The notes below the pieces were generated by a model. The model searched no databases, was not told the DNA's origin, and worked only from the letters and a program-made list of their open reading frames with translations. From a virus: a DNA stretch of 64,000 nucleotides. A program made the position numbers and the translations under genes. The DNA lies in the IMG/VR virus record IMGVR_UViG_3300042448_002155, positions 32,001 through 96,000 of that record, one strand, 5' to 3'. The number at the start of each line of letters is the position of its first letter. Within the stretch, counting starts at the first letter, position 1. Below are positions 3,001-62,975 of this stretch, piece by piece.

Positions 3001-3330
3001 GTCTATTCTTGAGCTAGTGTCCAAAAAGCGTAGCAGGTCGGGCGTAGCGGGCTCATAGACTATTTCTCCAACGTTAGTTACATACACCACATTAGAGCTA
3101 AGGGGTGTAGATGATTCCTGAGAATAGGAAGGCGAAGTAACTTCGGTACCAACGTAAGTATTGTCTCCGATTAAATTAAGACCATAGCGAGACCTGGTGT
3201 AGGAGTAGTTCTTATATTGACTATTGCTATACAGGTTTACGGCGTTACTTGTCCATAGGGGATTTCCTGTTAAAGCGTTAGATGTCTTGACGAAATCTCC
3301 GCTTTTAAAAAGTAACAAGTATTGCTTCAT
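1..3330 (-). CDS. Large baseplate wedge-like structural protein, 3'-truncated by the window edge (>=1110 aa; absent from the ORF track)
   Basis: ATG at 3330 with GAGG upstream. Translates MKQYLLLFKSGDFVK...; the segments I translated in this frame, including the last codons down to position 1, have no stop. Contains FNDFDEFGAKTGLQRLYKETNSRYKKRILD, resembling the LD..G...GL.R...ET...Y..RI wedge signature. Lies directly after baseplate J. Confidence 0.75.
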   Translation of the reverse strand, partial: MKQYLLLFKSGDFVKTSNALTGNPLWTSNAVNLYSNSQYKNYSYTRSRYGLNLIGDNTYVGTEVTSPSYSQESSTPLSSNVVYVTNVGEIVYEPATPDLLRFLDTSSRIDILAYKHTFTNTQGLETPSFNIQIHESDVENGPWLKSSLSFDSNVIFIRNSKPWIKIELEIFSENLDVSNLGLLFYLEIGIHEPTSPVVSTVARNILRRFPTWTKLFDDSLEPATPSLAIPESTGGKFLTALVQENIDDIVSQMDLRDINAFINSADEDMLAWAFVSYDTPTNLQTVVGDDVNVVPVNSLADFHRSKITDHVYYYNAIDKQILMMREYVSLLINGSPYEQYAVNIFNDFDEFGAKTGLQRLYKETNSRYKKRILDVSQNVPAIYADGLKRTLRRELDIWNAYGLDVNSASTQSFPGIYEISDLEKTTPYFSPSGRPEKIFKDLVNDLNSRYPSNIGYVRWGEGTWDYSGLDGEGVARIPAIYDIGTSPLSEYYQPGIGDFSDGRFILESLEKSTISFDGSMSIAGVHKTGIEYAYTPILVDYSWYVNYLRTVQDYEAGRRKSGVVQDVGVGLTYEIIMPPHDNYATPSTFYSNLNYSNRDDFYVGNRFPATSSASPEFNYIRIFDQEGNTVPDVVFKDKIYNQIYLNTHASPITNNITFNDASSVKIVFSNGGWNYVSQAYDTSLATASYWASFTTSTPNYYTNPAANSYTSMATPNRRPQDANIKIGSTNYATKVVSLNTNILKNTFSLNPQNDPSILGTSTKSIYVNDLLDRVILPPSATPQYLYVNVEAPNGLGYFGAEDIESGIIGGRTINPDDNSQYLVSSSPNILWQPFDSLDVSLGAADYFDSATINYAATPHYLLIESATSNYYPIYFDTYESFTAQTTPNLFSGYIDSLDNVYESSENESNSYFNTDSFLSKIYLDKSSFGLIENDVYIIKDATFDTGQDEIEAYAESRNRLLSDLNSSFSQEIEMSVDIHAKKDRFLIEEQRSALHTGWMYLDENDYYIYANPVTESSTGRFFNINLSNTPRNGAPVLVDVNGQSYRNIVFEDAATPGKLTFQNSEIVNASADQIIYLAYEDILNVSIIDNYTGKQMVEPIVVESNRVKMD

Positions 3331-30800: not shown

Positions 30801-31434
30801 TATCTTCTCTTCCTCCAAAAATTGGATCCACTAAGGCTTTTTGTCCAACATACAATGCTGGCAGTTCGTATGGCATTCGTCTTGCGGACGCAACCATTCT
30901 GGTCTGAATGGAGTCTCTACGCGCCCAGATTGCTGCTGGCTCATTTTCAATGCCTTTGCCCGCCTGATTGAGTTCTGCGGTAGTGAAATAATCACCCTTA
31001 TCAGTCAACTTTGTTTGACCTGCGGTTAACCTGCCATTGCTTTCAAAAACTAGATTACTATATGGGTCTAGCTGATCTGGATCCGCTCCGTCTATGGCTC
31101 TATTGACGCCACCTAGTTGGTCCATCTCTTTTCTGAGGCCAGTAAGACTTTTTACTGTCCTTGAAGAGAAACCTTCTGGATTAATGGAAGCCTGATCCTG
31201 AAGGGTTTTAGCTAGCTTCAGTCCACCTTCTCTAGTGATCTTACTAAGGACAAACATGGCGCCTAAAGTGGCTGCGCTCGTTGCAAAGAACCTTAGTACT
31301 GGATGGCCATTTAAGGCCTTGCTTACAAAGCCAGAGTTAGGAGCGTCACCTCGCTCCTCATCATTCATTGTCGGTAGGTCTCTAGACGTTACATTATAAC
31401 CTAAGTTTTGTATGGGTCCTGGATCTCTTACCAC
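24811..31434 (-). CDS. Tape measure-like protein (2207 aa)
   Basis: Very long, Ala/Gly-rich, probably helical protein with hydrophobic segments, directly downstream of two tail chaperone genes. Confidence 0.7.
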   Translation of the reverse strand: MVRDPGPIQNLGYNVTSRDLPTMNDEERGDAPNSGFVSKALNGHPVLRFFATSAATLGAMFVLSKITREGGLKLAKTLQDQASINPEGFSSRTVKSLTGLRKEMDQLGGVNRAIDGADPDQLDPYSNLVFESNGRLTAGQTKLTDKGDYFTTAELNQAGKGIENEPAAIWARRDSIQTRMVASARRMPYELPALYVGQKALVDPIFGGREDKPKVNWYNPVDVVTDFIKESSIALATMILPFELAGAAAGNARSSLHNFRQSMGDVARSSGVSSFKTKAAQRFTDLDDILGEVGHDLGKITNQALKVSSQTSAGIRAATTKYYENRPNITEVLHSVRNTNARQALANSADDNTLKRAAIFGRRLAFGDGADGNFGYVDLIPGLRGVGGAVNQGVNKFKETGIGYDVVNKALSFDAALRKGGALRKDGMTSDDLVGIVKSVQANFSSGTSRLANKIANTGGGGVGSKSFSGSEFHRSIEQVEYKKLLQKQILDLTPNSSRQGFSETLGKFIDDISVSSSATETSRKITIGKTKIIKEGDDAFDEILKRFSTTVDDPIEGGFLSTDALKTSIENTNRIFEGKEFQAAIMSKAEKGWNSVLENGIPRAASKVLKTKKANFEDFADLNNLSVSKKDFLIKRSAQRLGINLKDANGREVSNAVLAERLGKRGLDTDNLDSLRSFLVREKQIGTGIFSGGFNVFGLKAMTLDEGVSKGLFAGLGADERVALGEISKRMALADPTTTSSSVSVMKGMYTTRSGNVLDFSGLKQSVSNIGNFLANDLKIPIVNFNPARMLGKGSFDEMSGSTFFQIQQGKISQPFLPKGEQGADFYLSYGGGKSKSNVMAFKQGSLTGEFEAKELQGFYRPLSRRSNEMLSRSARNAASEGKAKSLNELEFADGKNRSNLLKRLGVSPERELALRQKFDVDYEQPNSIGRMLSRFAKRKTDPENPAFFARLLKNETVEAKGKQFKLNFADDTGAVTGISPGTGQEMITEGQMLRAFENFRNQSFKNPFPRRVMTRLEDSGIGLFNGRRVSSLNNVQDTQQFANDVLQARFHDASRIRQMGYETQTLEQAGSRIQNLLQKDDLLSGSHIRSTSPTILTREDALKDELYKYLIQRNELLASSSAGAAGKNFSNTFIELNNVLTAMAKELPPGQLAEAQAAGLATLFNISSMRANKAGLSELAVQRGALRNTAETLKGAEGLLDPFVTGTSQRIGEVGKSGLIKKALYPRLSTAPYRISESSSDALGSAMGPATDTLLVPTFGTVFAKNPYGAVKSALGINTYSSVESYSSASTAMSHSIERLNKYFGTIGLQLNVSQYGSPIGLFTSGMVGKRVLPLYGAGLGVMTVDRTIGGMVNEKDDRGERVYSPFFIGGAAKAVGNLQALGSGITPGGMNFQEKKEQLFEGEVAIRQGRFWPLGNTPFMGGKIMYYRPSIYRKLEAGAMFTSDNMGSPIERALFHTDISPLRPFDPYRYERKHFEDRPYPVSGEYFSGPFGPLVPALNATVGKILKPQTMMHQQEVAAGLANYAPAGQSGAYNADPYINGRGGVFGGMGGVAGGMTMGGFGGPPNGAQASSNAMLAGRAGSLNTARNETRNTISGINNQYMQMAYGPPKVSGIMPQRIVPAGSPLSVGNPQIQAQEFGYRAQEMLGIYGFAASSVRESFGLGQRDFAPQRSVLQSASKAYGTGRQFWDLNLGGLGDVPMLGGGQIGSIEFSEITRRFIPKERSGVDYINPIKNTMGRQYPFLPGSEYFTDFTTGDPFAKVPEGELRLPGVAYERLNRLSSDASGRYGVMDQYKILGDVAPYSKQFRSLDKTIDSMVNGPADKLKVQELRERSASLQQKKEFTEYKYKNSTPEQMGVNPNVHALGRMGEMLAHKDTFINKKFVNKQTATEDWERNNVYGATFPEWQRPFESFIAPMINKAGNRDPISATAALAVAGSFFGETSKGKLVMSTLGAITGLTVSSLHSANEAITGEKFIPRTRKKELALEEYADILNYTKNTRLAKMANMAGDKGAAFQYESAAKRTMYGAPIEDINSGKYGTDVESLSLSIPKRKREHFKAMINAPVEERKRILDTAGRLERRIYEAAWGMDVEKRPELTDYFARHELPDESWEGWHPNTSMDQVKIKIGQSMGLEMSQMGYYPQQLQEASLSNPSYPRFGGGSGSQTDTASRLRSLMSGMGVSGSVIPVMNPFGSEQIDINAGVR

Positions 31435-31448
31435 GTTTTTTCCTTAGT

Positions 31449-32078
31449 TCAGCCTGAACCCCACAGCTTTTGAGCAATGGGGTCTTGATAAGCTGCTTCT
31501 CCTTCTTTCTTAGAAAGATTATGACGAGCAGCTGAAACTTTTTGTTTTTGCACTTCTTCTTCAGGATCAATTAATTGAAGCGTTAAATTGGTTGCTTCCA
31601 TGCCGTTCATGTTTTGCTTTATTTCAATTATTTTTTCTGAAAGAGCTACATTTTCAGCTAATTCAGAGAATGTCATATTCTCTAAATCATCTGGAGTATA
31701 TGTAGATATAGTAGCGAGAACAAAGGCTTTCATTAAATTCTTAACTTCTGTAGCTTGATATCTTTTTTCTTCAAGAACGCTTTTAGCTAAGGATACGGTA
31801 AAGAAACCTGATATATCTAATATCTCTTGAGACAATGAAGAAACTGCCCCAGGAGGTATTGACATTAGGTCAAAATCTTCTGGATGGATAATAGCGTATG
31901 ACAAGATTAAGTCTTCCATATCTGCGGAAGAAAAACCATCCAAACCTTGTAGGTATAATATTTTATTATATTCTTTAAAGGTTAGTTCTCTAAAAACTAA
32001 AGATTGACCTTTAACGTCAACGCTGTAGATATTTCCATATTTACTTTTTAAAGTAAATACTAACTCTGGATCTATCAT
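31449..32078 (-). CDS. Tail assembly chaperone (paralogue 2)
   Basis: LKSKYGNIYSV...VFRELTFKEY...PGAVSSLSQEILDISGF; paralogous to the upstream gene; precedes the tape measure. Confidence 0.7.
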   Translation of the reverse strand: MIDPELVFTLKSKYGNIYSVDVKGQSLVFRELTFKEYNKILYLQGLDGFSSADMEDLILSYAIIHPEDFDLMSIPPGAVSSLSQEILDISGFFTVSLAKSVLEEKRYQATEVKNLMKAFVLATISTYTPDDLENMTFSELAENVALSEKIIEIKQNMNGMEATNLTLQLIDPEEEVQKQKVSAARHNLSKKEGEAAYQDPIAQKLWGSG

Positions 32079-32081
32079 ATG

Positions 32082-32636
32082 TTACAGCTGTCTTACCTCT
32101 AGCGCCACGAAGCCTGAAGCCTCTAGTACCTCTTGAGCAATCAGGGATGGAAGGCCAGCCATAAATCCAACAGCGTTGTTCTTATCAAACTTTGGATAAA
32201 GCATACACAGTTCAGATATGGTCTCTTCATTCCAGAGATTAGCTTCTGCTGTGGTTAATTGTCCTGCCTGAACTAACTGTTCCATTTTTTTAACAATCTG
32301 CTTATATTCAGCGCGATTCAAAACTCTCCACACGATATGCTTATCGTAGGTAATGGAAGTGACATAGATATCGCCGTACTGCTTTTTCCAGTCTTTGACT
32401 GTGCCAGCTAATGGCCCACCATTCCAGATTGCTTCTTCGTCCGGAACATCTTCTATATCTTGATAATCAACATTTACTTCTGGATCTTCTGTGTCTTCTA
32501 AGCCGGTAGAATATCCCGATAAAAGGTCACTTGCCTTTGGGTCATCCGATAACTCTAAGTCTACAGTAGTAGTTTCAAAGTCTTCTCCAGATTCAATATC
32601 TAAATTTTTAATAACAACTTTTCTCTTGGAATCCAT
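32082..32636 (-). CDS. Tail assembly chaperone (paralogue 1)
   Basis: WKKQYGDIYV...VWRVLNRAEY...AGLPSLIAQEVLEASGF; lies between tube genes and tape measure. Confidence 0.7.
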   Translation of the reverse strand: MDSKRKVVIKNLDIESGEDFETTTVDLELSDDPKASDLLSGYSTGLEDTEDPEVNVDYQDIEDVPDEEAIWNGGPLAGTVKDWKKQYGDIYVTSITYDKHIVWRVLNRAEYKQIVKKMEQLVQAGQLTTAEANLWNEETISELCMLYPKFDKNNAVGFMAGLPSLIAQEVLEASGFVALEVRQL

Positions 32637-32664
32637 AATTACTCTCTTTCATTTCAATTAATTC

Positions 32665-32675
32665 ATTATATCATA
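32665..32675 (-). promoter_or_regulatory. Extended -10 promoter (TGaTATAAT) upstream of the tail chaperone
   Basis: Minus strand reads TATGATATAAT about 30 nt upstream of the ATG at 32636. Confidence 0.6.
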
Positions 32676-32737
32676 TAATACTTATTTGAGCAAGCGCTTT
32701 AAGAGGTTAAAAACTGAGTCGTATTCCTTATTGACTC

Positions 32738-33673
32738 CTACCCTCTCTGTAAATTGCCCACTGTAGATGTCGTTGTTGCCGCAGCTGCAGCTGCTTCTGC
32801 TGTTGCAGAAAGGTTAGAGGCTACGCCAGACTTAATGAACGAAAGGTCACCTTCAGTGAAATAGTGATCTCTTGCCATGAATTGGTAGCTTTCGCCAATA
32901 GGTTGACCACCCGGCCCGTATGCTATTGACATATTTGTCAAATTTATTTCCTGTATCACTATTTTCATGGGATTGACAATTCCATCTGACTTGATAGTTC
33001 TTTGGTTGACGTCAGAAATCATCATTCTGTCTATATTGTCGGAAATATTAATATCTTCAGATTGATATAAATTTAATGGAGACAATGCTACTTCTTCCAA
33101 CCCATATACTATAATTAAATTAAATGGTGGATGAGCGCTAAAAATATTTCTATTGGAATTTTCTATATTCTTAGCGAAGGGATCATCTGTTATTCTGTCA
33201 AGCTGACCTCTAGCCCAATACTTCTCTACTAACTTTTCTTCTTCTTCTGTTTCAAAACTAGATCTTAAATCAGATATCGTTCCATTAGTTGAACGGTTTT
33301 TTCTTTCTGTGCGAGCCCTAACAGCGGCTGCTTTTTCTAAAAGCTCTGTCATTCGTCTCGGATACTTAGAAAACATTGTCATTTCTCCGGTAATAATTCT
33401 AGTACCGTACATCATGGCATCATAGTTATAGGACCAGAATCCATATAGCGGCTGCTTTTCTTGTCTTACGTTAAAGGCAAAGCTGGCAATATCTAGTTCA
33501 TCTTCAGGAGAGAATAATCCGTCTATATATATTCGGATATCTTCTCCGCTGAAATAATAATCATAATAATTACTAAAGCGTAGATCGTCCTTTTTACCAC
33601 CGCTCCACAAGGAGTCTATTGTTTCATGGAGAGGATCGTACTCTCTCATGTTATTTGTGTTTCTAATTGTCAT
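32738..33673 (-). CDS. Tail tube-like protein, paralogue 3
   Basis: YFSGEDI...FNVRQEKQPLYGF...GTRIITGEM...PPFNLII; similar to the two upstream tube genes. Confidence 0.7.
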   Translation of the reverse strand: MTIRNTNNMREYDPLHETIDSLWSGGKKDDLRFSNYYDYYFSGEDIRIYIDGLFSPEDELDIASFAFNVRQEKQPLYGFWSYNYDAMMYGTRIITGEMTMFSKYPRRMTELLEKAAAVRARTERKNRSTNGTISDLRSSFETEEEEKLVEKYWARGQLDRITDDPFAKNIENSNRNIFSAHPPFNLIIVYGLEEVALSPLNLYQSEDINISDNIDRMMISDVNQRTIKSDGIVNPMKIVIQEINLTNMSIAYGPGGQPIGESYQFMARDHYFTEGDLSFIKSGVASNLSATAEAAAAAATTTSTVGNLQRG

Positions 33674-34455
33674 GCTGGAGGCTTCACCTGAGTTGTATTA
33701 TTTTCGTTCTTTTTAGGATTATATTTCTTTTCATAGTATTCTTCTTCATTCAAGGAAGCTAGCTCTTCCACTATAAGATCGCCAAATATATTTGAACCAA
33801 TATTTAAATCTCTTGATTTCATTGCCTGTGTATATGTCGGATCAGTGGGCACTAAACTATCATTCGGCATCTTGATAAGTGGCTGGATTCCTCTTGCCAT
33901 ATATGTATATGTCTGCTCTGTTATCAAGTCATCTATGGATAATGTTTGACCTTCGTCAACTATAGTAACTCCAAAAATTTTCATCTTAGCCCCAATTCCA
34001 TATTCATTAAAAAATGTAATGACAATATCAAATGGTGGCAACATATCTGCAAGCGGAGCAAAAAAGCCTTGCTTCCTGGCTAGGTATTCTCTAAACTGCT
34101 TTATTCTGTAGAAAGCATACTCATTAAAAACGGTAAATATTAAACTTCCAGCAATAGTTCTTCCACCCTTAACAAAACCCCTGACATTTACATGGCCCAA
34201 TGTTCTTATGGGGGAGTTCTCTCTGTGTATCGAGTATGAAATTGTTTGAAGTTCTCCAAGCGTTATTATGTCGCCCTGTGCTTCAACGTTGCCTGTTTTA
34301 CCTATCACTGGAACTATCATAGTCGCTACTGCGTCTGCTCCAGAGAAGGACATATTTGACATGTATTTATCAAAGTCGAATAAGTCAGTACCAGCGTTTT
34401 CTTTATTCTCTTCTTTTTTTGTCAACTTAAAAGGGAATGTTTGCCCTCGTGTCAT
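33670..34455 (-). CDS. Tail tube-like protein, paralogue 2
   Basis: SFSGADAVA...ISYSIHRENSPIRTLG...RTIAGSLIFTVF...LPPFDIVITFFNEYG...TYMAR. Confidence 0.75.
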   Translation of the reverse strand: MTRGQTFPFKLTKKEENKENAGTDLFDFDKYMSNMSFSGADAVATMIVPVIGKTGNVEAQGDIITLGELQTISYSIHRENSPIRTLGHVNVRGFVKGGRTIAGSLIFTVFNEYAFYRIKQFREYLARKQGFFAPLADMLPPFDIVITFFNEYGIGAKMKIFGVTIVDEGQTLSIDDLITEQTYTYMARGIQPLIKMPNDSLVPTDPTYTQAMKSRDLNIGSNIFGDLIVEELASLNEEEYYEKKYNPKKNENNTTQVKPPA

Positions 34456-34466
34456 ATGTTTCTCCT

Positions 34467-34508
34467 AAAAATAAAAAGGTGCATGGAAGAAGCCTCCCAT
34501 GCACCTTT
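34467..34508 (-). terminator. Rho-independent terminator after the major tail tube gene
   Basis: Minus strand AAAGGTGCATGG-GAGGCTTCTT-CCATGCACCTTT followed by TTATTTTT. Confidence 0.9.
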
Positions 34509-34527
34509 CACATAAAATTACACTCTA

Positions 34528-35190
34528 TCAGGGTCTGATAATTGTGGTGTTCAATCCTTCAGGCGGAATGCCTACCAGATTAGTCGGATCGACAAGAGTA
34601 TCATTTCTGATGACATACATGGGACCAAGCTCACGAGCTACATAGGTCATTGTTTCTTCAATAACGATATCGTCCATTGATGCGCCCGAACCTTCGTTCA
34701 AAAGTTCGCAACCATAGATTGATCTTACTGCAGCTTGACCGTATTCGTTAGCAAAAGTCACGGTAATGTCAAATGGCGGAATCTGATCAGCGTAGTAAGG
34801 AACTTTTCTTACGACGCCAGTCTTCTGCTCGTTGACATCAGCAATACCTCGTCTGTGACCATTGTCGCCAGGTAATGTATTGTGGCTTCTTGTGTAGAAG
34901 TCCATGGGTCTGTTTTGTGTATAGTTTTGTTCCAACATCTTATAAAGCGCGGGACGATCAAACACTGTAAAGATTAAAGAGCCAGCTATTCCTCTTTTGC
35001 CTCTTGAGAAAGAGCGAGGATTAGGTGAACCCATAGTATAGATTGGAGCCTTTTCTCTAGTGACAGAGAACGTAATGCCTGATAAGGCACCGATCTCTAC
35101 TCCACCAAATGTGGCTACAATGTCCGCTCCTGAGAACGTGGTGTAAGTATTGAGATACTTATTAACTGATGTATATTCTTCTGCTGCCAT
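34528..35190 (-). CDS. Major tail tube protein
   Basis: TFSGADIVATF...SVTREKAPIYTMG...RGIAGSLIFTVFDR...IPPFDITVTFANEYG; follows sheath; AGGAGG SD; followed by a terminator. Confidence 0.85.
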   Translation of the reverse strand: MAAEEYTSVNKYLNTYTTFSGADIVATFGGVEIGALSGITFSVTREKAPIYTMGSPNPRSFSRGKRGIAGSLIFTVFDRPALYKMLEQNYTQNRPMDFYTRSHNTLPGDNGHRRGIADVNEQKTGVVRKVPYYADQIPPFDITVTFANEYGQAAVRSIYGCELLNEGSGASMDDIVIEETMTYVARELGPMYVIRNDTLVDPTNLVGIPPEGLNTTIIRP

Positions 35191-35216
35191 TTAAGTTACC
35201 CTCCTAGTCGGTAAAT

Positions 35217-36455
35217 TTATAGACTAATGGCCACTCTGACTTCGATCTCTTTGAGTTCGAAGGCAGGTGTTAAAATAAGGTCTACAACCGCCTTGTTTTC
35301 GTTCGGGATATAAGAGACCGTGAAGTCACTACCGAGCAAGGCTCCTACTATTTGCATACCTCTCAAGCCAGAAGTAATTGCTGTTTCCATCGAATTTCTT
35401 GTTTGAATATTTGATGGCTCACCAACGAATCTCTGGCAGGCTTGTCTAACAACTGAAGTAGCATCGTTGATGATTCTCTTGGTTGATAGTCGAGTGTAAT
35501 CTGATGTGGACCATGCAAAGGTTAGTCCATCTCCGAATACTGGGATCTTGTTAAAGTTAATAACAACAGTGTTAATACCCTTAGCTGATAAAGCTGTTTG
35601 CTGTGTTCTCGTAGGCGAGTATCTTACTGATTCAACATTATAAACAGCCTTGTTAACGATTGAGCTGTACGAAGGCAATATGCTCATTGTAGCAGCGAGG
35701 TGTGCTGCGCCGTTTGCATAGCCAAAGTCAGTTGTTCCAGAAACGTAATTAACTGGCTTGATTTCTGCAGCAACGACGACTACATACGGTCCAGTCTCCT
35801 TCAACAGGTCGCTGGCGTCTCTGTCGGGAAGATTGGTAAGAGCCAAATGCGTGTTTGTGTTTCCTGGAGTCATCGTTTCCGAAGCTCCATTGTAAGACTT
35901 GACGCCCATAACTGCTATGCAAGGATTAATATTTTCCGAAATATCTTTAACTTTTACCGAAACCTTATATGCCCAGTTATAGTCTACAGTAGCAGAGTTA
36001 TCTGCGTAGAAGGCACGGGTTGAGTCATCGGGTGAATCCGGCGTTGCTGCCCATTCGCTAGGGCGACCACCACGACCCCAAGGGACAATAATGTCTGGGA
36101 TGCATGATTCTGCTGCAATAAAAATATCATTAAAAATGTCTACTCCGCCACTGGTGACGGCACCGGTAGCTGGGACAAATGTGGTATTGCTTGGCAACGG
36201 GACGATATAAATTCTTCCCGCTCCACCAATAATAAGCTCAAGAAACGCTCTGTGTGCATCTGAGCCATTACCAAAAGCTGTGATAACGTCTGCTTCATTG
36301 GAGGCCCGGACAACATCAAGATCTGATATTCCACCAGTTCCACTAGCTGTACTCCGCTTTGCTATTGCAACAATTCTAGGACCAGCTGGCGTGTCCTGAC
36401 GTGAGACGCTATAAAAGCGATCTCTGATTAAAGTTCTTACTCCAGGTATAGCCAT
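35217..36455 (-). CDS. Tail sheath protein (major)
   Basis: C-terminal sheath pattern LSAKGINTV...YTRLSTKRII...FVGEPSN...LTPAFELKEIEV; GGAGG SD. Confidence 0.85.
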   Translation of the reverse strand: MAIPGVRTLIRDRFYSVSRQDTPAGPRIVAIAKRSTASGTGGISDLDVVRASNEADVITAFGNGSDAHRAFLELIIGGAGRIYIVPLPSNTTFVPATGAVTSGGVDIFNDIFIAAESCIPDIIVPWGRGGRPSEWAATPDSPDDSTRAFYADNSATVDYNWAYKVSVKVKDISENINPCIAVMGVKSYNGASETMTPGNTNTHLALTNLPDRDASDLLKETGPYVVVVAAEIKPVNYVSGTTDFGYANGAAHLAATMSILPSYSSIVNKAVYNVESVRYSPTRTQQTALSAKGINTVVINFNKIPVFGDGLTFAWSTSDYTRLSTKRIINDATSVVRQACQRFVGEPSNIQTRNSMETAITSGLRGMQIVGALLGSDFTVSYIPNENKAVVDLILTPAFELKEIEVRVAISL

Positions 36456-49351: not shown

Positions 49352-50984
49352 CTATGCCTTTCTCATCATTAGTGTAAACGATAGTATACTCTGATTCTAG
49401 AGCATTTTCAACTAATGTGAGCCATGAATTATCAGATCTTCTAATATTTGGTGAAGTTTTTCTTCCTTGTTGATTTGCTGGTCGGATAGTATTGCCAGAT
49501 CCTCTTTTGGTATTGGGAAGATTTCTTTGCCCTTTTGTGGCGGGCGTTTGCTTATCTCCATCCCGCTGAACATCTACGGCTTTTGTACCTGAGGTAATTT
49601 CAGCTTGATTCTTAGCCATTTCCATTTGGATCTTAGCTTGAATTGATGCGTAAAGATCTTCTTCGTCGTATTCTGGATCAAGGCCAAGTTCCAATCTAGC
49701 TTCCTTAAGGCCAATTATATTATTGGCATACTTTTGGATAACATGAGTTTCTTTCTTAACCTGAGTGTCTACGTCTATTTCGTTAAACTTGAAATAGCAA
49801 CGATCTGATATACCAGACTCTATAGGATTAGATATGGGATCAAATCCGCCCTCCATTAAAATTTCGTTAAAGATATGAACTCTGACCATATCAGAAAACA
49901 GCTTTTGATATTGCTTTACCTTATCGTACAGGGCAGTATCTAAGCGATCTGTCACTGATCTATTTCCGCCATTCATCATCATTCCCAAATGGTGCGGAGC
50001 GACTCCTAGTCCAACTGCTACTCTTTCTTTGAAGTGTTGCAGATATGCCGTTGCGTCCAGTGCTGCGTTGTTTGCCCCGATGACATCTATTGAATGACGA
50101 TAAGGAAGTATTAAGCCACCCTCTGCTCTAAGGTTTTCGATTTCTATGGCAGCCTTGTCTATTTCATCGGGCTCTGCTGGTTGGTCTGCGGTTCCTATTG
50201 TATATCTATACAGAGGGAATAGTTCTCTGTGAACTAAGTTTTGAATATCCTCTTCCATCTGTCTAAGTGCAACAACATCGTCAAGCACGGTCCCCATGAA
50301 GGGTGTCCCAAAAGCTCTACCAGTCTTCTTATCGGTGTGCATATGGATAACGCGGTCAGCTGACCAAACCGGATCACGCTCTGTTGGAGCGTACGTCAGA
50401 GGGTCCGAAGCCTGCTGATATGACCTAGGTCTATTGAACTTATCTCTCAATATTCTTACTTGTTCAGTGGGAATTAAATAGTATCCTACGACCGGAAGCT
50501 CCGCATTGACCCCTGATATTTCAGTGGGAAAGTACTCCGAAATATCTCCTCTAGCCTTGACTATGAAAACATTTCCATACTTGAAAAGGTGATCAGTAAC
50601 CTCTATCAGGAAGTCTAGAAATGGGCGCTTCATTGCCATTTCCATAAAATCTATTCTTTGATAAAGATAAGAAACTGCTTCTGGATTTTCGCCAACAATG
50701 TTCCAGCTTTCTTTCCAGAAGAGTTCCTTATGCTTATTCAACGCCTGCTTGACGTAAGAGTCAGTATCTGCCGCCTGCATAATCCGATCAAAGTCATACG
50801 GAGAAGGCTCAAATGTAGCCCTATTGTTATAATAAAATGTATTACCCTGAAAGCCGAGTGCCAAGGCAGCGACTTTCATAGCTCTGCCTACTGATTTAAT
50901 TTCATCAGGTTGCAATGCCTTAGCAATAACATTATTTTGTGATTTATCTCTTTGCCTAAAGGGCAAAAAATCAAAAGCTGCCAT
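49320..50984 (-). CDS. Portal protein
   Basis: LFKYGNVFIVK, VIHMHTDKKTGRAFGTP, VAVGLGVAPHHLG, YFKFNEID, EARLELG; probable ATG at 50984 with GGAG SD. Confidence 0.9.
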   Translation of the reverse strand: MAAFDFLPFRQRDKSQNNVIAKALQPDEIKSVGRAMKVAALALGFQGNTFYYNNRATFEPSPYDFDRIMQAADTDSYVKQALNKHKELFWKESWNIVGENPEAVSYLYQRIDFMEMAMKRPFLDFLIEVTDHLFKYGNVFIVKARGDISEYFPTEISGVNAELPVVGYYLIPTEQVRILRDKFNRPRSYQQASDPLTYAPTERDPVWSADRVIHMHTDKKTGRAFGTPFMGTVLDDVVALRQMEEDIQNLVHRELFPLYRYTIGTADQPAEPDEIDKAAIEIENLRAEGGLILPYRHSIDVIGANNAALDATAYLQHFKERVAVGLGVAPHHLGMMMNGGNRSVTDRLDTALYDKVKQYQKLFSDMVRVHIFNEILMEGGFDPISNPIESGISDRCYFKFNEIDVDTQVKKETHVIQKYANNIIGLKEARLELGLDPEYDEEDLYASIQAKIQMEMAKNQAEITSGTKAVDVQRDGDKQTPATKGQRNLPNTKRGSGNTIRPANQQGRKTSPNIRRSDNSWLTLVENALESEYTIVYTNDEKGIDDVREDNNKE

Positions 50985-51008
50985 CTTCTTCTCCACTTTA
51001 AAAACTAC

Positions 51009-53991: not shown

Positions 53992-54309
53992 CTAAGATTC
54001 AGTTTCTTCTTCTTCAACTATGTCCCATTGACATGTTGTTTCGTTCAAAACCCATTCGTGTTCTTCGGGCTTAGGTGGGATGAAGGCATCCCGAGTTTCG
54101 TCGTAAGTGTATCCAATACCAGCGTAGTTAAATCTTACTGGTTCTTTACCTTGCGAGTGTTCTCCAGCAAAAGTATTGACAGATGTCTTAATCCAACGCC
54201 CACCAAGGTTGTCAATTAACCATTGATAGCCTTCGTCGGGTTCGTCATTATTACCTACTGTAATATTGATAACAATATTGTTTTCGTCTATTTGTGCCCA
54301 ATGACTCAT
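53992..54309 (-). CDS. Small phage protein of the type that accompanies Gly-rich fibre tips
   Basis: MSHWAQIDENNIV...WIKTS...RFNYAGIGYTYDETRDAFIPPKP...WVLNETTCQW; ATGA overlap with the upstream gene. Confidence 0.7.
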   Translation of the reverse strand: MSHWAQIDENNIVINITVGNNDEPDEGYQWLIDNLGGRWIKTSVNTFAGEHSQGKEPVRFNYAGIGYTYDETRDAFIPPKPEEHEWVLNETTCQWDIVEEEETES

Positions 54310-57300
54310 GTTAACCACCTTAAGAAAACTACTCCAGCCCTACCCTCAGATGCTGTGGCCCCACCGCTTCCGGTTCCTCCTCCACCAGAGCCTAAATTAG
54401 TGGATGTAGTTCCGGCCGTAGAGGCGCCTCCGCTTCCGCCTTGACCGACAGTAAATGTTGAGGCTATGGTTGGATTTAATGCTACTCCGCCCGCGCCACG
54501 AGTATTTAATGATGCGGCTTCACCACTGCCGCCAATTCCTGCACCTCCGCCACCAGCCCTAAAGATGCCACTGCCTGAAGCGCTGGCTCCAGCACCTCCC
54601 AAATAATGATTATTAGAAGAACCATTACCGCCACTAGCGCCCCAGGCCCCGGCCCCTCCTGGGGACCCACCACTAGGCCCTGAACTGCTGACTATGGTGG
54701 AACCTGAATAAACTATTGAAGTGGTACCACCACTACTGCCGCCGGTGCCAGCATAGGTAAAACCAGTATTACTACCAGAAACATATGTACCACGGCTTCC
54801 ACCGCCACCAATAGTAATTACGTAATCACCCGTGCTGCTACTTGTTCGTGTTCCAGATGTGTAGTTTCCACCCGCTCCTCCTCCACCGCCACCACGGTTA
54901 GCGAGACCAGTGTTATTACCTGCGCCTCCACCTCCTGAACCACCACTCAAAGCAAAATATTCAATATCTTTAGCGCCAGTTGAAATTGTAAAAGTACCGT
55001 TAGCAGTAAAGTACACACCTGTATATCCAGCACCAGCATCATATGAAGTGCCACCTGAGGTCGTAAAAGGAATCGCTATTGACCAAGTAAATTCTTTAGT
55101 GACATTACCCGCGGTATTTTCTGCCCTAACAGTAAATGTATAGGAAAAAGAAGAGCCATTAACAGGTGTTGTATACGTCCCAGTAATTGCTCCAGTAGAA
55201 GAATTAATACTGAATCCACTAGGTAGTGATCCCGCACTAATGCTATACGTTACTGCAGAATAAGAGGCATTGCTTGATACTCCATCGGAATAAGCGGTGT
55301 TGTATGTTGGAGTTGCTAATGTTTCGTCATTCCATGTTGGAGGAGTATTTACGTTAAGGCTAAAACTTTTACTTATACTACCAACCGTATTAGTTGCCGT
55401 TATAGTGAAAGTGCTGGCATCAGCCGATAGTGGGGTTCCGGTTACTGCTCCAGTAGAAGAATTCAGAGAAAGTCCGCTTGGCAAAGATCCAGACGTAATA
55501 GAAAACGTTACACTAGGGTATCCTATAGCCGTTACTCCATCGGAATATATTAAAGATAAATTTGCATCCGCTAAAGTTTCATCAACCCATGTTGGAGCCC
55601 TATTAATTGCGCCAGAAAATGATTGTGTGACAGATCCAGTTTCATTAGCTGCCTGAATAGTGAAGGAGTATGCTCCATAATATGTTGGAGTGCCAGTAAC
55701 CGCTACAGCACTTGCAGTAAAAGCCCTCACAGGACGCACGGAGTTCGTGCTCGGCTTGCTGTCCGGGTTCGGATTGGGTTCGTTGAAATGCTGGTACCAT
55801 GCGGCTGCAGTCGAGCGCTCAGTAGAACTCCAATAGAGAACAACCGTCGAAAAACCTGCGTTCAAAGCAACTCTGTTGACATACATTTGGGTTAGTTCGT
55901 CTTTTGATGGCAAAAACCAGTCAGAATAACCACCATAAGTTAACTCACTACAATACACGGCAGCCGATGTTGCTGCCACATTTCCTGATTGAGCAACAAT
56001 ATCAATAGTGTTTTGCGCACCCGTACCTATTGCAGTACCATCAGCGCCAGAAACTAATGCTGACTGGTTCGCCCCAGTAGACCAAGTTCTTTGAACTTCA
56101 ACGGCGACAGGTGCTACCTCAAAATATTTACCTGTGGAGTTCCCCACTGTAGAGGGAGTAATAAATATTTTTCCTCCACCAGGACCAGTATCACCAATAC
56201 TAAATGTCGGACTTAAAGAAGTCGGACTTAAAGAAAGCCCCGTTGGTAAAGTTCCAGAACTAATTGTATATGTTGGACTTCCCGTAGCGACTACTTCATC
56301 CGAATAAGCTGTATTGTAAGTGAATGTTGCCAGTGTATTATCCGTCCATGCAGGCGTTACATATAGGTCATCGGTGAATAGCTGAGTAACATTCCCGGCT
56401 GCATTTTCAGCCTTGACAGTAAAGGAATATGATCCAGCTGTTGTTGAAGTTCCAGTAATTGCACCAGTCGAAGAATTTAGAGTTATTCCAGATGGAAGTG
56501 CTCCGGCAGAAATAGAATATGTCACTGCGGGATAACCTGAAGCTGCAACTGCGTCACTATAAGCCTGCCCGTAAATCATATTTGCAATTGCTGAATCAGT
56601 CCACGCTGGAGCTGTGTATATCGTTCCGCTAAAAGCTTTTTCAATATAGCCCCAAGAGTTTGTTGCGCGAATTATAAAACTATAAGATCCGGTAGAACCA
56701 GTATTTCCAGTTATAGCACCAGTTGACGAGTTGAGCGATAAGCCAGTTGGAAGAGAGCCAGAATAGATAGAGTAAACTATGGTTGCTGTACCTGCCGCTG
56801 AAACGCCATCACTATATGCTACGCCTTGGGTAATGGCGCCGAGTGCTTGATCAGACCAAGATGGCGGAGATTGTACTGTGCCGGTAAATGATTGAGTTAT
56901 TGAACTAGATAAATTTTGTGCTTTAATCGTAAATGAATATGATCCACTAGATGTTGTCAAGCCGCTAAGTAGCCCAGTTGTTGCGTTCAATGTTATTCCA
57001 CCTGGTAAGGCTCCAGAAGAAATAGAATAAGTTGGACTAGGAACTCCGTATGCCAAAATAGAATCTGAGTAAGATGAGTTATAATTTATATTTGCTAACG
57101 TATTATCAATCCATGATGTTATTTCATTTATTACTCCAGAAAAGCTGGCTTCATTATAATATTTTCCATCATCGGTTGTTGCTCGAATCGAGAAAGAATA
57201 GTTACCAGTTTCACTGACCGTACCAGTTATCCGTCCAGTAGATGAATTAATCGAAAGCCCTGCTGGTAAAGCTCCAGAAGAAACAGAATATATAGTTCCA

Positions 57301-57791
57301 ACTGCGGAAATTAAATCATCATAAGTTCGGCCATATACAAATAAATCTAATTCGATTGATTTCCAAACCGGAGCTAGATTAACTTGATAATCATCTATTC
57401 CAGCATTATCTACTTCGTTTAATTTTCTTAAATTTGGCGTATTATAATAGACGGCGTATTGTCCAACTATTTCTTCTGCTGCCGTATGCAATTCATATGT
57501 TTTAAAATAAATATAGTCGCCTTCTATTACAGTTTGAACTGGATATGCATTGTCGCCCTTTTCATAAGTCACAATATATGATGCTTCATCTGTTTGATCT
57601 TCTAGAGAGGTATCTTTATATGTATTAATGTTGACATCTGATATATTAGCAAATATCCAAGTTCCAGAATTTATTGTATCCCTTGGCGTAAATCTACCTA
57701 TAAACCTCTTGCAATAGGGGTATGAGTAGACAGTGTTGGGTGTAGCCAAGTTTAAATTTTCAGTAGATTTAAAATATTTAAACCAAGCCAT
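54306..57791 (-). CDS. Adhesin/fibre: seven He_PIG-type Ig repeats, an inserted DUF1566 (C-type lectin fold) domain and a Gly-rich C-terminal domain
   Basis: Seven G.LP.G..(L/I)...TG..(T/S)G repeats; YSDWFLPSKDEL...YWSSTE...AW...VRPVRAF; GGGGGAGG tail. Confidence 0.85.
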   Translation of the reverse strand: MAWFKYFKSTENLNLATPNTVYSYPYCKRFIGRFTPRDTINSGTWIFANISDVNINTYKDTSLEDQTDEASYIVTYEKGDNAYPVQTVIEGDYIYFKTYELHTAAEEIVGQYAVYYNTPNLRKLNEVDNAGIDDYQVNLAPVWKSIELDLFVYGRTYDDLISAVGTIYSVSSGALPAGLSINSSTGRITGTVSETGNYSFSIRATTDDGKYYNEASFSGVINEITSWIDNTLANINYNSSYSDSILAYGVPSPTYSISSGALPGGITLNATTGLLSGLTTSSGSYSFTIKAQNLSSSITQSFTGTVQSPPSWSDQALGAITQGVAYSDGVSAAGTATIVYSIYSGSLPTGLSLNSSTGAITGNTGSTGSYSFIIRATNSWGYIEKAFSGTIYTAPAWTDSAIANMIYGQAYSDAVAASGYPAVTYSISAGALPSGITLNSSTGAITGTSTTAGSYSFTVKAENAAGNVTQLFTDDLYVTPAWTDNTLATFTYNTAYSDEVVATGSPTYTISSGTLPTGLSLSPTSLSPTFSIGDTGPGGGKIFITPSTVGNSTGKYFEVAPVAVEVQRTWSTGANQSALVSGADGTAIGTGAQNTIDIVAQSGNVAATSAAVYCSELTYGGYSDWFLPSKDELTQMYVNRVALNAGFSTVVLYWSSTERSTAAAWYQHFNEPNPNPDSKPSTNSVRPVRAFTASAVAVTGTPTYYGAYSFTIQAANETGSVTQSFSGAINRAPTWVDETLADANLSLIYSDGVTAIGYPSVTFSITSGSLPSGLSLNSSTGAVTGTPLSADASTFTITATNTVGSISKSFSLNVNTPPTWNDETLATPTYNTAYSDGVSSNASYSAVTYSISAGSLPSGFSINSSTGAITGTYTTPVNGSSFSYTFTVRAENTAGNVTKEFTWSIAIPFTTSGGTSYDAGAGYTGVYFTANGTFTISTGAKDIEYFALSGGSGGGGAGNNTGLANRGGGGGGAGGNYTSGTRTSSSTGDYVITIGGGGSRGTYVSGSNTGFTYAGTGGSSGGTTSIVYSGSTIVSSSGPSGGSPGGAGAWGASGGNGSSNNHYLGGAGASASGSGIFRAGGGGAGIGGSGEAASLNTRGAGGVALNPTIASTFTVGQGGSGGASTAGTTSTNLGSGGGGTGSGGATASEGRAGVVFLRWLT
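56206..56235. repeat. Perfect 15-bp tandem duplication (GTCGGACTTAAAGAA twice) at the edge of the DUF1566 insertion
   Basis: Read directly from sequence; encodes SLSPT-SLSPT. Confidence 0.95.
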
Positions 57792-59601: not shown

Positions 59602-61455
59602 CTAAAACATTTTTCTAGTTTTTTTGGAGCTAGTTGATCTTTTAAAGCTTCCAGTTGAATTCAAACCATTTGTTCTCCCAGTGATTACAAATTTTGGCTT
59701 TTCATCTTCCGAATCTGAATTATTTTGTTTGGGCATAAAAAACTCATTGGAAAAACTTTCTGTTCTGGTAGCGTAGTTACCCTGTGAAAATTCTCCATAG
59801 TTTTGCGTTATTGCCAATAGTGCCAACATCAATGCATCGTGTGCGTGATCCATTGCGGAACCAGCAGCTTCGAATACTGGCCGACCAGTTTGAGTTGTTC
59901 TAATAACAACATATGAAATTAGCTGCATATAGATTTCTTCATCTGACTCTGGAATAAGTATTCTTTCTTTTTCCAAGAACTGCCTAAGATTGTCAACCAT
60001 AAAAGGTTTCATTTCTTTCTTAATCATTAACTTGGTATATGGATCTCTAACATCAATGCTTTCACCAAAGCTAATGCCCTTAACTTTATCCCTAAGACCA
60101 GAATATGGATTTTCTACTCCATGCTTCTTCAGTAGCTCCACTTGCACTTCTCCATATCCTCTGTCAACATAAATGTGCTTAGGATTAAATGCCCGATTTA
60201 ATTCAATAATTCTATCTACAGCTTTTGTTAAGGTATATTCTGATCTGGGTATTTCTTCTCTATAACAGATTCTACTCTTGCCTCTAAATCTAGTATCTTC
60301 ATAATTCTCTGCACATGTTTCTACTATGACTATATTTGTTCCCGCACCATACTTATCCCAGTCAACTCCAATTGTATGGAAAGATCTAGCTGAAGTAATT
60401 TCAGGAGTGTAATCCCATGATGGCGAAATGAAAGCTCTGTCAACAAACTTTCTGGGATAAACACCTTCAGAGTCTTCACCCCAGTCAGCTTCTATTTCAT
60501 GACGATATCCACTTGGGGAATATTGTTCTCTAAATTCTTCTTCTTGTTCTTTAGAAAAATATGGATTGCAATAGCTGGGAAACCAAAACTCTGTAAATCT
60601 AGGAGATCTACACCATTCCCAAAAACGTTCTCTACGACCAGTAGGAGTAGAGGCGCCAATCATGACTTTATCAGGCTGATCTTCTGCCGTCTTCTGAAGC
60701 ATGGCGTACAGTGCATCAAGGTCGTCTGCATGCATGTAATCCATTTCGTCAAGGACAATCAAGTGCGCTTCCTGACCACGAGCAACGTCGCTCTTTCCGC
60801 CTGACTTCATTCCTGAAGTAAAGAACCTGATTGTTGATCCATTAGAAAACTGAATCATAAACTGCGGACTTGTGACTTTTCTAGTAATTGAATTTGTGAC
60901 TACTTCGTTCTTAGAAGCTATTCGTAATATTTCCTGATAGATAAGTTCTACTTGAGTTTTCATTGGCGCAATAACCAATGATCTTCCATCCTTATGCGTA
61001 TAGCTATAGTGTAACAACATTATTGCTAAACTAAATGTTTTACCTAAGCGACGACCAGCTCTAAGAACTTTTCTTAATCCTGGATCTCTTAATATTAGTA
61101 TTTGATATACTCTAAGTTCAGCTCCAAGGAATTGCTTAGCCCATACTACTGGATCTTTTGAAATATGCAATTGCCTTTGATGTTCGGTGCTAACGCCTGC
61201 TGCCAATAAATCAAGATCCATTTCGAATGGCTCATCAACAAGTAAAGCTAATTCTTTATTAGTTAACTTTCTTTCAATTACCGGAGTTCCGTCGCTCCAT
61301 GAAATATGATTTAGCTTGTTTTCAAAAACCCATTCAATTCTATTTATTTGCTTTATGAGTTCGGGATCTTGATCTTTTATTATCTCAAATAAATCTTCTC
61401 TTGAAAGACCTTCTAGTGCTTCTCTGAATTTTTGCGTTTTATTAAAAATACCCAT
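59602..61455 (-). CDS. terL: Terminase large subunit
   Basis: Walker A RAGRRLGKT, Walker B LIVLDE, coupling motif ASTP, nuclease IGVDW and DHAHDA. Confidence 0.95.
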   Translation of the reverse strand: MGIFNKTQKFREALEGLSREDLFEIIKDQDPELIKQINRIEWVFENKLNHISWSDGTPVIERKLTNKELALLVDEPFEMDLDLLAAGVSTEHQRQLHISKDPVVWAKQFLGAELRVYQILILRDPGLRKVLRAGRRLGKTFSLAIMLLHYSYTHKDGRSLVIAPMKTQVELIYQEILRIASKNEVVTNSITRKVTSPQFMIQFSNGSTIRFFTSGMKSGGKSDVARGQEAHLIVLDEMDYMHADDLDALYAMLQKTAEDQPDKVMIGASTPTGRRERFWEWCRSPRFTEFWFPSYCNPYFSKEQEEEFREQYSPSGYRHEIEADWGEDSEGVYPRKFVDRAFISPSWDYTPEITSARSFHTIGVDWDKYGAGTNIVIVETCAENYEDTRFRGKSRICYREEIPRSEYTLTKAVDRIIELNRAFNPKHIYVDRGYGEVQVELLKKHGVENPYSGLRDKVKGISFGESIDVRDPYTKLMIKKEMKPFMVDNLRQFLEKERILIPESDEEIYMQLISYVVIRTTQTGRPVFEAAGSAMDHAHDALMLALLAITQNYGEFSQGNYATRTESFSNEFFMPKQNNSDSEDEKPKFVITGRTNGLNSTGSFKRSTSSKKTRKMF

Positions 61456-61457
61456 AA

Positions 61458-62975
61458 TCACCCATAGTGCGCTGCCATCATTGCACCCTCTGTTCCAAGG
61501 GCGCTTCTTGCGTTAAGTCTGGAATTTTGAATTGCCTGGACTCCTCTAGCTCTAGAAGTTGCTGCCGCTTCTGTGTCCTTATATCCCATTCCAAAAGTAG
61601 GTTTAGCTATTGAACCTTGAAGAGACTTGTTTGCGTCTTTGGCTAAGTTTATACCACTTTTCACTACTTCGCCAGCCATTTGACCAATATCATATATAAA
61701 GGATGCTGCCGCTACTAGTTGAACGCCCGGAAGGAGCATGGCTGCACCTCTCATTGCTAACATTTTTCCAGCGCCAGCAGCTGCTAATTTCTTTGTAGCA
61801 ACGGATCCGAGTGGCCTAAAAAACTGCTTGCCCTTGCCTCCAGTGCTTCTTAGGAAGTCTATAGCTCCGTCACTGCCCTTTATTAACTTGCCTCCAATTT
61901 CCAAACCATCATCACCAAATGCTTTTGCAAATGCATCCCCGAAAGCTTTTTCTGCGCTCCGAGCACCTTCCAATGCCCTGCCCCTTAACGCGCCTTTTCC
62001 AGTCAAACCACCAAAGCCTAACGAACCTCTGGCATACCCTGCCATATATCCGACACCAGCTGAGCCCATTGCCGAAGCATACATGTTTCCTCTCACTCCG
62101 ACTTGTCCTGCCATAGCTCCGGGCGTTCCAGATACTGCACCAGAAAGTGCGGATTGAAATCCTGCTTGCGTAAAGCCAACTGCTCTAGCTTGTGCAAGTC
62201 TCTGCTGAGCAGTTAACATATGAGGGCCAGCGTATCGAGCATTCTGTCTTGCCATTTGAACTGCGTTAAAATTTGTATTATTCATTTTAGCTAACATACC
62301 TAGGGCATCATCTGCTTTAGCCAATTTTTTAGCTGCTCTTCTACTACCCTTAAGGGCTCTACTCTCTAAAAGGTCAACTCTTCTGCCTGCACTAATTCCT
62401 GATACCATTCCTGGACCAAAAGCTGTCTCTCCTTCTTTAAGTGTTATACCCATTCCTTCTAATGCTTTTTGGCCAAGTTTAGTTTTACCCAAAAAACCAG
62501 AAGCTCCAAATGGTGTGTATGCGTTCTCGGAAGGGTTTGCAAAAACGCTGAGAGAATGAAACCCAGTGAGATTTCTTGGCCTTAAGCTAACATTGTTTAA
62601 TCTGGATGATCTAAGGAACGGAGTTTTTCTTGCGCTTCCCGTAGCAGCTCCAAGAGTTTGGTTTCTTTGTGCTCCACCAAGAAATTGTTTCGTAGCAGAA
62701 CCATAACTATTTAGTGTGCCACCCTGTAGGGTTCTGAATTTAGCTGCTCTGCTGGCATCTATTTTTTGCCCTAGTCCTCTATACCCCGGAATTCTCTTGC
62801 CTAATTTGCCGGTACCTCGTTTTGATGCACTGTCCATGTATCCGCCACGCAATAGCGTGTTGGAGCCCCTCGTGGTACTAAGGCCTATTGACGCAGCTAT
62901 TCCCGGAAATGTTTCCAATATGCGAGCATATAGCGGTGCCTCCATTTGATCTATAGGCATATCCCCCTCGAGCAT
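61458..62975 (-). CDS. Gly/Ala-rich basic protein with hydrophobic segment (putative internal/ejection protein)
   Basis: Probable ATG at 62975 or 62960; AAMLLPGVQLVAAASFIY; ends AATSRARGVQAIQNSRLNARSALG. Confidence 0.55.
   Translation of the reverse strand: MLEGDMPIDQMEAPLYARILETFPGIAASIGLSTTRGSNTLLRGGYMDSASKRGTGKLGKRIPGYRGLGQKIDASRAAKFRTLQGGTLNSYGSATKQFLGGAQRNQTLGAATGSARKTPFLRSSRLNNVSLRPRNLTGFHSLSVFANPSENAYTPFGASGFLGKTKLGQKALEGMGITLKEGETAFGPGMVSGISAGRRVDLLESRALKGSRRAAKKLAKADDALGMLAKMNNTNFNAVQMARQNARYAGPHMLTAQQRLAQARAVGFTQAGFQSALSGAVSGTPGAMAGQVGVRGNMYASAMGSAGVGYMAGYARGSLGFGGLTGKGALRGRALEGARSAEKAFGDAFAKAFGDDGLEIGGKLIKGSDGAIDFLRSTGGKGKQFFRPLGSVATKKLAAAGAGKMLAMRGAAMLLPGVQLVAAASFIYDIGQMAGEVVKSGINLAKDANKSLQGSIAKPTFGMGYKDTEAAATSRARGVQAIQNSRLNARSALGTEGAMMAAHYG

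Follow-up and report, generated by a model that had tools for sequence, protein, structure and literature searches.

Introduction

Is the GC-rich tip of a lectin-like module lodged in the middle of a phage protein a working target of a diversity-generating retroelement (DGR), or a variant that was written by one and then left behind? This question is raised by a 64,000-nucleotide stretch of viral DNA (IMG/VR record IMGVR_UViG_3300042448_002155, positions 32,001 to 96,000; the whole stretch is referred to as the window), in which a 1161-aa protein built of He_PIG immunoglobulin-like (Ig-like) repeats carries a Lcl_C/DUF1566 module whose last 38 codons (W654-F691, hereafter the tip) resemble the variable region (VR) of a DGR. 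An earlier reading of the letters alone (the sequence-only reading) had offered two explanations, a remote, internal DGR target or a frozen variant captured from a DGR-bearing phage. The tip was therefore compared with DGR template repeats (TRs), and the whole virus record (G000; 113,714 bases, estimated to be 54% complete), its relatives and lake metagenomes were searched for a TR, a reverse transcriptase (RT) and Avd. Our assessment is that the tip is probably an orphan, currently static DGR-written lectin tip in this phage.

Results

Composition and ancestry of the tip

The GC content of positions 55721-55820 was 0.61, and a value of at least 0.60 is attained by just 0.24% of 100-nt windows across the 64 kb, so that the marked elevation claimed by the sequence-only reading was confirmed, as was its count of codons ending in C or G between F and VRPVRAF (13/15). 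GC content at third codon positions (GC3) was 0.66 in W654-F691 vs 0.26 in the rest of the open reading frame (ORF) (binomial p = 2e-7), with 0.28 in the module body and 0.27 in the entire gene. A local GC3 jump of this kind was found in several related modules (L016/L017, 0.78; L019, 0.76; L028, 0.74; L029, 0.72) and was not present in others, e.g., L023, L031, L038 and L044.

BLAST with an actinobacterial TR gave a single match in the window (55719-55856, 73% identity over 139 nt, E 1.4e-15). Relative to the nearest TR, the window segment differed at 21/40 template-adenine sites vs 12/56 non-adenine sites (p=0.0016), an adenine bias far below that of the related locus L019 (22/40 vs 2/56), and in the 3' 48 nt of the VR at 10/20 template-adenine sites vs 3/28 non-adenine sites. 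Fixed scaffold codons were common to the window and the TR (TGG AGT TCT, TGG, CAG, TTC, AAT, AAG, ACG AAC, and GTG CGT CC. GTG), and NNC-type codons stood at template AAC sites. The last 21 nt of the window VR (GTGCGTCCTGTGAGGGCTTTT) were identical to the VR 3' ends of L098, L111, L127 and L128; this identity with canonical VRs extended to synonymous sites, where clearly fossil modules have drifted. The 12 non-adenine mismatches of the window included four C-to-G changes at third positions (TCG and three CCG), and changes of this type cannot be made by adenine mutagenesis. No strong GC-rich hairpin was found in the coding sequence following the window VR.

Because the segment shares nucleotide homology with a real TR and with canonical VRs, and because its mismatches are biased to template adenines, it is, as judged by sequence comparison, a DGR-type variable region by descent. 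An ordinary DUF1566 domain that never had a DGR history, with a GC-rich loop produced by chance, amino-acid composition or selection, is highly improbable. The YWSS...VRPVR frame is indeed common across the Pfam family, DGR-served or not, but the GC3 shift lies at synonymous positions, the 139-nt TR alignment has its mismatches concentrated on template adenines, and the GC3 anomaly recurs in relatives whose VRs match the TR. From the phage-like GC3 of the module body beside the anomalous tip it follows that the module was already established in AT-rich phage genomes when the tip was written or copied in; the tip was thus not simply captured along with the module.

Cassettes carrying the nearest template

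Metagenome contigs were scanned for the conserved scaffold of the segment, and 118 hits from lakes were obtained. Nearly all were C-terminal VRs (...YVRPVRAF followed by a stop codon), and five were asparagine-codon-rich template repeats with Avd encoded on one side and RT on the other. The genes of the lake cassettes matched the proteins of Bacteroides phage Bacuni_F1 with E 1e-12 to 1e-16 for Avd and E 1e-79 to 1e-90 for RT, and in L120 and L139 a VR was situated ~725 nt upstream of the TR. In species-representative genomes, the scaffold pattern was found only in metagenome-assembled genomes (MAGs) of freshwater Actinomycetota (acIV, Ilumatobacteraceae and Acidimicrobiaceae), which had several VR contigs each and TR-Avd-RT at four loci. 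The set of cassette loci comprised L348, L355, L356 and L376 from MAGs, and L088, L116, L120, L139 and L151 from metagenomes. The cassette of L116 was flanked by cellular genes (peptidase C26, MpaB-type oxygenase and AI-2E transporter), and the targets of the cassettes had signal anchors with collagen-like repeats or pilin-type (N_methyl) N-termini. The GC content of the cassette loci was 45-57% vs 39% for the phage.

The freshwater TR was present in no IMG/VR contig. Only four IMG/VR loci with relatives of the freshwater RT were found, and they were rejected as candidates, having no gene or module in common with the phages studied here. A TR-like core that is widespread in viral contigs was likewise set aside as belonging to other DGR subfamilies (at least 27 non-adenine mismatches to the window).

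Two further observations concern the freshwater VRs. The RT adjoined 0/19 of those having at least 2.5 kb downstream, and the targets were many, dispersed and C-terminal. In most of L075-L154, conserved AT-rich CTATTTA-like repeats and then a GC-rich hairpin were seen 20-70 nt past the stop codon of the canonical VR; this arrangement, which could be a terminator or a DGR cis element, was not present after phage internal VRs.

Absence of a cassette and invariance of the tip

In the 113.7-kb record, no match to the RVT_1 profile and no tblastn match with the RTs of Bacuni_F1 or the freshwater cassettes was obtained; neither was Avd found (no PF05635 match, and no tblastn match with two Avd queries, from Bacuni_F1 and a lake cassette). 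BLAST (E up to 10), a repeat search and an ungapped scan of both strands in which non-adenine mismatches alone were counted gave no second copy of the segment other than the self-match. As a positive control, the RT and TR of Bacuni_F1 were recovered by the same methods. The statement that RT and template repeat are lacking in the window thus extends to the full record, and the near-copy differing only at adenines, the DGR RT and the Avd that the sequence-only reading had envisaged elsewhere in the genome were not found in the 54% that the record covers.

No RT was found in 25 further records of related phages or module carriers, including near-complete ones, G003 and G004 (92%, no module), G008 (100%) and G009 (98%), the last two of which have modules with fossil-looking tips. 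No TR was detected within 10 kb of 45 related modules, or in the whole records of L015, L016, L017, L028 and L042. Joining G000 with G006, G012 and G013 to fill the missing half was attempted and abandoned; these records are collinear, stop in the same region and add only 10-20 kb.

The exact 1161-aa protein was found on 11 contigs from three sources and was the sole member of its 90% cluster, a level of clustering that absorbs fragments and VR variants for other proteins. No variant of it was found among 15 billion proteins, and no shorter protein was more than 72% identical over the module. Searches with a junction 23-mer in viral contigs and with a two-flank pattern in metagenomes yielded zero further copies of the window allele. 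The window tip had 12 non-adenine mismatches to the closest TR vs 2-3 in freshly written relatives.

These results bear on the possibility that the tip is an active remote internal target, 55719-55832 being still rewritten by the phage's own cassette in the unsampled 46% of the genome (at a distance of > 26 kb in one direction or > 87 kb in the opposite one). The incompleteness of the record and the ending of all collinear relatives in the same region leave space for such a cassette; the high tip GC3, the intact 3' end resembling an initiation of mutagenic homing (IMH) site and the strictly non-synonymous VR differences between L016 and L017 (described below) are in keeping with it, and non-adjacent targets are known, in phages mostly <=50 kb from the RT (Wu et al. 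2018, PMC5758913). We nevertheless regard it as distinctly unlikely: RT is lacking in 26 records of these phages, four of them at 92-100% completeness; IMG/VR holds no freshwater TR, and its four RT relatives are unrelated to these phages; the protein is invariant on 11 contigs; the tip has 12 non-adenine mismatches to the nearest TR; and the VR is not followed by the GC-rich hairpin that in BPP-1 is needed for efficient homing (PMC3240598).

Mobility and rewriting of related modules

The module was found, mostly at internal positions, in 39 viral loci, with 20 to 972 aa following. In the group of G000, three genes bear it, namely, the He_PIG gene (G000 and G001), a gene for a 1700-aa protein (L015-L017 and L044) and one for a 665-aa protein (L048). 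The G000 orthologs of the latter two (G000:C1:19413-22157 and 30726-35330, of which the second corresponds to window 1-3330) lack the module that is carried by the versions of the relatives (L048, and L044 with L015-L017), and the L019-type protein is known with and without it (582 vs 403 aa). The module is thus a mobile plug-in part, exchanged among the structural genes of freshwater phages.

Rewriting of DGR type was seen at an internal VR in two pairs of near-identical phage genes. The orthologous 582-aa phage proteins encoded at L019:9161-10909 and L028:6562-8310, in which 120 aa lie downstream of the VR, have ~98% DNA identity outside the VR, and inside it they show 34 differences at first or second codon positions and 2 at third positions, the swapped tract being confined within the limits of the TR. 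Over 96 nt, the L019 VR differed from the TR of the L376 MAG at 22/40 adenine vs 2/56 non-adenine sites (p=7e-9), and the L028 VR from a MAG template at 21/40 vs 3/56. In the 1700-aa ORF of L016 and L017, whose strains are 1.8% apart, 7/7 VR differences (codons 669-712) were non-synonymous, at codon positions 1-2 and of N/D/S/Y type. Neither RT nor TR was found on the L019 and L028 contigs (18-38 kb) or on those of L016 and L017, all of which are incomplete. Separately, codons 573-658 of L016/L017 contain a dense tract of mostly synonymous differences resembling a recombination patch. In P0002, P0005, P0008 and P0012 (contigs up to 133 kb), Mtd_N is followed by the module and then by more domains, the VR being internal; P0005 and P0008 have an identical C-terminal half and different VRs.

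A second alternative is suggested by these relatives, in which the phage VR has its cognate TR in a DGR of the host chromosome and is occasionally rewritten in trans during infection, or converted by short-homology recombination with one of many DGR-written VR copies of the host, remaining static in between. It would account for the finding of TR, Avd and RT solely in Actinomycetota MAGs or a cellular context and in no viral contig, for the almost exclusively adenine-directed divergence of the L019 VR from a MAG template, for the codon-position pattern of the L019/L028 swap within TR limits, and for the behaviour of the related VRs at population level, which are mostly stable with rare wholesale replacement and show no continuous variation; moreover, avd, TR and brt act in trans in BPP-1 (PMC5758913). 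However, no host link has been established for this phage, its GC content (0.39) is well under the 0.45-0.57 of the cassette loci, a phage-borne cassette could have been missed in the relatives with freshly written VRs, whose contigs are just 15-63% complete, the RT-less G008 and G009 carry fossil-looking VRs, and the window VR is without sign of a recent event. In addition, retrohoming, by an unseen phage cassette or by a host cassette in trans, would look the same in sequence as short-homology recombination with DGR-written donors. Such borrowing of the host's machinery is consequently considered possible but rather doubtful for the window tip. The corresponding general proposal, that internal lectin VRs of lake phages are rewritten via the DGR of an actinobacterial host without an RT, Avd or TR of their own and that the window tip is a borrowed-and-parked variant, is put forward only tentatively, as a minority view.

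Insertion of the module and its host gene

The coordinates of the features are listed in Table 1. By BLASTP against the uninterrupted ortholog in L005, residues 1-521 of the protein aligned to the identically numbered residues and 697-1161 to 527-1011, which leaves residues 522-696 as an insertion in place of NSSTG. As the sequence-only reading had it, the module sits in the fifth He_PIG repeat (of seven by count of the LPxG motif), at the NSSTG loop, and about 470 aa follow the VR; in the L005, L006 and L009 orthologs, this repeat is uninterrupted. The inserted sequence matched Pfam Lcl_C (DUF1566, PF07603; E 6.8e-11, 42.9 bits vs a cut-off of 34.9, residues 602-689) and phrog_4245 (E 4.1e-28). 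In the AlphaFold model, the predicted local distance difference test (pLDDT) score was > 90 across the module; its best match in the PDB was the C-terminal domain of Legionella Lcl (8q4e; Foldseek E 2.8e-6, probability 1.00, TM-score 0.69 on target), followed by C-type lectin-like domains, and a lectin-like fold is predicted on this basis.

Table 1. Positions of the gene, module, tip and other features in the window
Feature	Position	Strand	Basis
DGR-type variable region (by descent), W654-F691, 38 codons	55719..55832	-	GC3; TR alignment; adenine-biased mismatches
Lcl_C/DUF1566 C-type-lectin-like module, 175 aa, residues 522-696	55704..56228	-	BLASTP gap vs L005; Pfam; phrog_4245; AlphaFold
Perfect 15-bp tandem duplication in N-terminal junction linker	56206..56235 (copies 56206-56220 and 56221-56235)	-	Repeat family D13
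Host gene, 1161-aa accessory virion-surface (fibre or decoration) protein	54306..57791	-	ORF call; domain matches
N-terminal domain, ~150 aa	57342..57791	-	Conserved separately: 66% identity over residues 1-141 in L011-L014
He_PIG Ig-like repeats 1-4 and first half of repeat 5	56229..57341	-	Pfam; residues 1-521 collinear with L005
Second half of He_PIG repeat 5 and repeats 6-7	55077..55703	-	Residues from 697 onward align to L005 from 527; Pfam He_PIG
Glycine-rich C-terminal domain	54309..55004	-	Composition; ortholog comparison; weak Gly_rich_2 match

The perfect 15-bp duplication reported at one junction is exact and encodes SLSPT twice. It was considered as an insertion mark or target-site duplication and rejected as such; since the copies are in tandem and none occurs at the other (C-terminal) junction of the insert, it is a linker duplication. 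The L002 ortholog has the module in the same He_PIG repeat, as another allele (60% identical) with different linkers. This ortholog (L002:10001-14512, 1503 aa) also has a block of four additional He_PIG repeats. At the C-terminal junction of its module, part of a repeat is duplicated (ITGTPAYGA / IAGIPTYYGA), which points to a transfer of the module together with pieces of He_PIG flank.

All long ORFs of the window are on the minus strand. The host gene is flanked by the genes for TerL (59602-61461) and portal (49320-50996), identified by PHROGs, and, by TerL, the closest isolated relatives are jumbo myoviruses of Gram-positive hosts (30-38% identity). The He_PIG gene and the following gene for a 108-aa protein (window 53992-57791) are missing from the collinear relative G006 (C1:107000-108700), which indicates an accessory insertion between conserved head-region genes.

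The protein consists of the N-terminal domain, seven He_PIG repeats with the Lcl_C insert, and the glycine-rich tail. The N-terminal domain is probably the virion anchor; in L011-L014, the remainder of the protein beyond it differs from that of the window. He_PIG (PF05345) was matched in six stretches (E 1.4e-66), seven repeats were counted by the motif LPxG[LI][ST][LI]N, and the DNA repeat family of the region (D1) has a period of 255-261 nt. The Gly_rich_2 match of the C-terminal domain was weak (E 0.0022, below cut-off). The GC content of this domain (0.52-0.62) is high because of its amino-acid content; the domain is strongly divergent between orthologs that are otherwise 76% identical, and a module in P0009 is likewise followed by this domain. 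The plus-strand ORFs at 55297-55656 and 55623-55895 were taken as antisense artefacts of the GC-rich coding stretch and not as genes.

Discussion

The reading preferred here, that of an orphan and currently static tip, may be described as follows. In this phage, a lake myovirus of roughly 200 kb, an accessory virion protein of fibre or decoration type carries, in a surface loop of its fifth He_PIG repeat, a lectin-like module inserted in frame, of which the last 38 codons would form the binding face of the lectin fold. The sequence of the tip would derive from the TR of the Avd-TR-RT cassettes that freshwater Actinomycetota (acIV, Ilumatobacteraceae/Acidimicrobiaceae type) carry in their chromosomes, and such a derivation would explain a GC- and NNC-rich patch in an AT-adapted gene. 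The tip may have arrived by past retrohoming or by short-homology recombination with a DGR-written donor. With no template, RT or Avd now at hand, drift appears to have begun at its non-adenine positions, and it most likely works as a binding tip of fixed specificity that is displayed sideways from the Ig stalk. The sequence-only reading was thus right about a DGR variable region as far as descent is concerned; its working remote target is disfavoured by the lack of a cassette, the invariance of the protein and the 12 non-adenine mismatches. Of its frozen captured variant, the frozen state fits better, and the remainder has to be changed: cognate cassettes were found in Actinomycetota chromosomes only and not in a DGR-bearing phage as donor, and the tip was added to a module body that already had phage codon usage.

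Several points weigh against a static orphan. Internal VRs of related modules have been rewritten in a DGR-like manner on contigs without a cassette. Since the collinear G006, G012 and G013 represent no more than the structural half already seen in G000, ~65-85 kb of the genome of this phage remain unseen, and few samples may lie behind the 11 identical contigs. The tip GC3 is still far above background and the 3' end is still identical to canonical VRs over 21 nt, so that the tip is not old. Lastly, some canonical VRs have 8-14 non-adenine mismatches to the small set of TRs, and the 12 of the window could therefore reflect an unsampled TR variant and not decay.

The window VR was compared with known systems. 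VRs overlapping DUF1566 form category 'd' of Wu et al. 2018 (PMC5758913). CLec2-type DUF1566/DUF823/Fib_succ_major targets, such as Legionella LdtA and the target of the Bacuni_F1 target-Avd-TR-RT array, resemble the window in fold family, in NNC codons and in a lectin domain that closes with the VR (YWSS...K...VRPVRxF), and scaffold codons of the Bacuni_F1 VR/TR are also present in the window, e.g., AAG...AGC ACG AAC...GT. CG. CC. GT. In these systems, however, the protein terminates with the VR and the cassette lies next to it, whereas the window VR lies inside an Ig repeat, far from the C-terminus, in a record without Avd, TR or RT. The DGRs of freshwater Actinomycetota provide the nearest template and, in some cases, an identical 21-nt VR 3' end, but their targets are bacterial surface proteins with C-terminal VRs, ~50% GC and cellular flanks, and outside the VR their domains are 40-48% identical to the window module. 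The remote targets of the Treponema denticola TvpA family likewise have a VR without an adjacent cassette; unlike the window VR, they are accompanied in their genome by a cognate TR from which they differ at adenines alone. Mtd of BPP-1 is, similarly, a phage protein with a DGR-written tip of lectin fold, in that case a receptor-binding protein, and some relatives of the module carry Mtd_N; in contrast to the window protein, it has a C-terminal VR followed by IMH and hairpin, an adjacent cassette and demonstrated tropism switching (PMC3240598). The closest structure, Legionella Lcl_C (8q4e), forms the C-terminal end of a collagen-like protein, where it acts as a static adhesin domain, and is not an insert in an Ig domain.

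The C-terminal location of VRs was attributed by Roux et al. 2021 to a need for intergenic cis elements, and the same authors stated that remote targets escape their method and suggested that intragenic recombination builds chimeric targets (PMC8144416). Guo et al. found that IMH and a downstream hairpin suffice to target a heterologous gene in BPP-1, the only system for which this cis requirement has been established (PMC3240598). Wu et al. argued that remote targets belong to cellular DGRs (PMC5758913). A literature search, limited in coverage, gave no publication in which a cellular DGR serves VRs borne by phages and no description of an acIV-type chromosomal Avd-TR-RT DGR.

DGR surveys look beside the RT for targets and describe VRs as C-terminal, and orphan tips of the kind found in the window are thus an uncounted source of receptor-binding novelty. 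At the least, DGR-diversified binding tips circulate ready-made between cells and phages, and among phage genes. If the internal VRs of L019 and L028 were rewritten in place, the rule of C-terminal position and cis elements would not be absolute, and a cellular DGR could shape the host range of phages. The template shared with freshwater Actinomycetota is also a lead for the assignment of hosts to uncultured lake jumbo phages.

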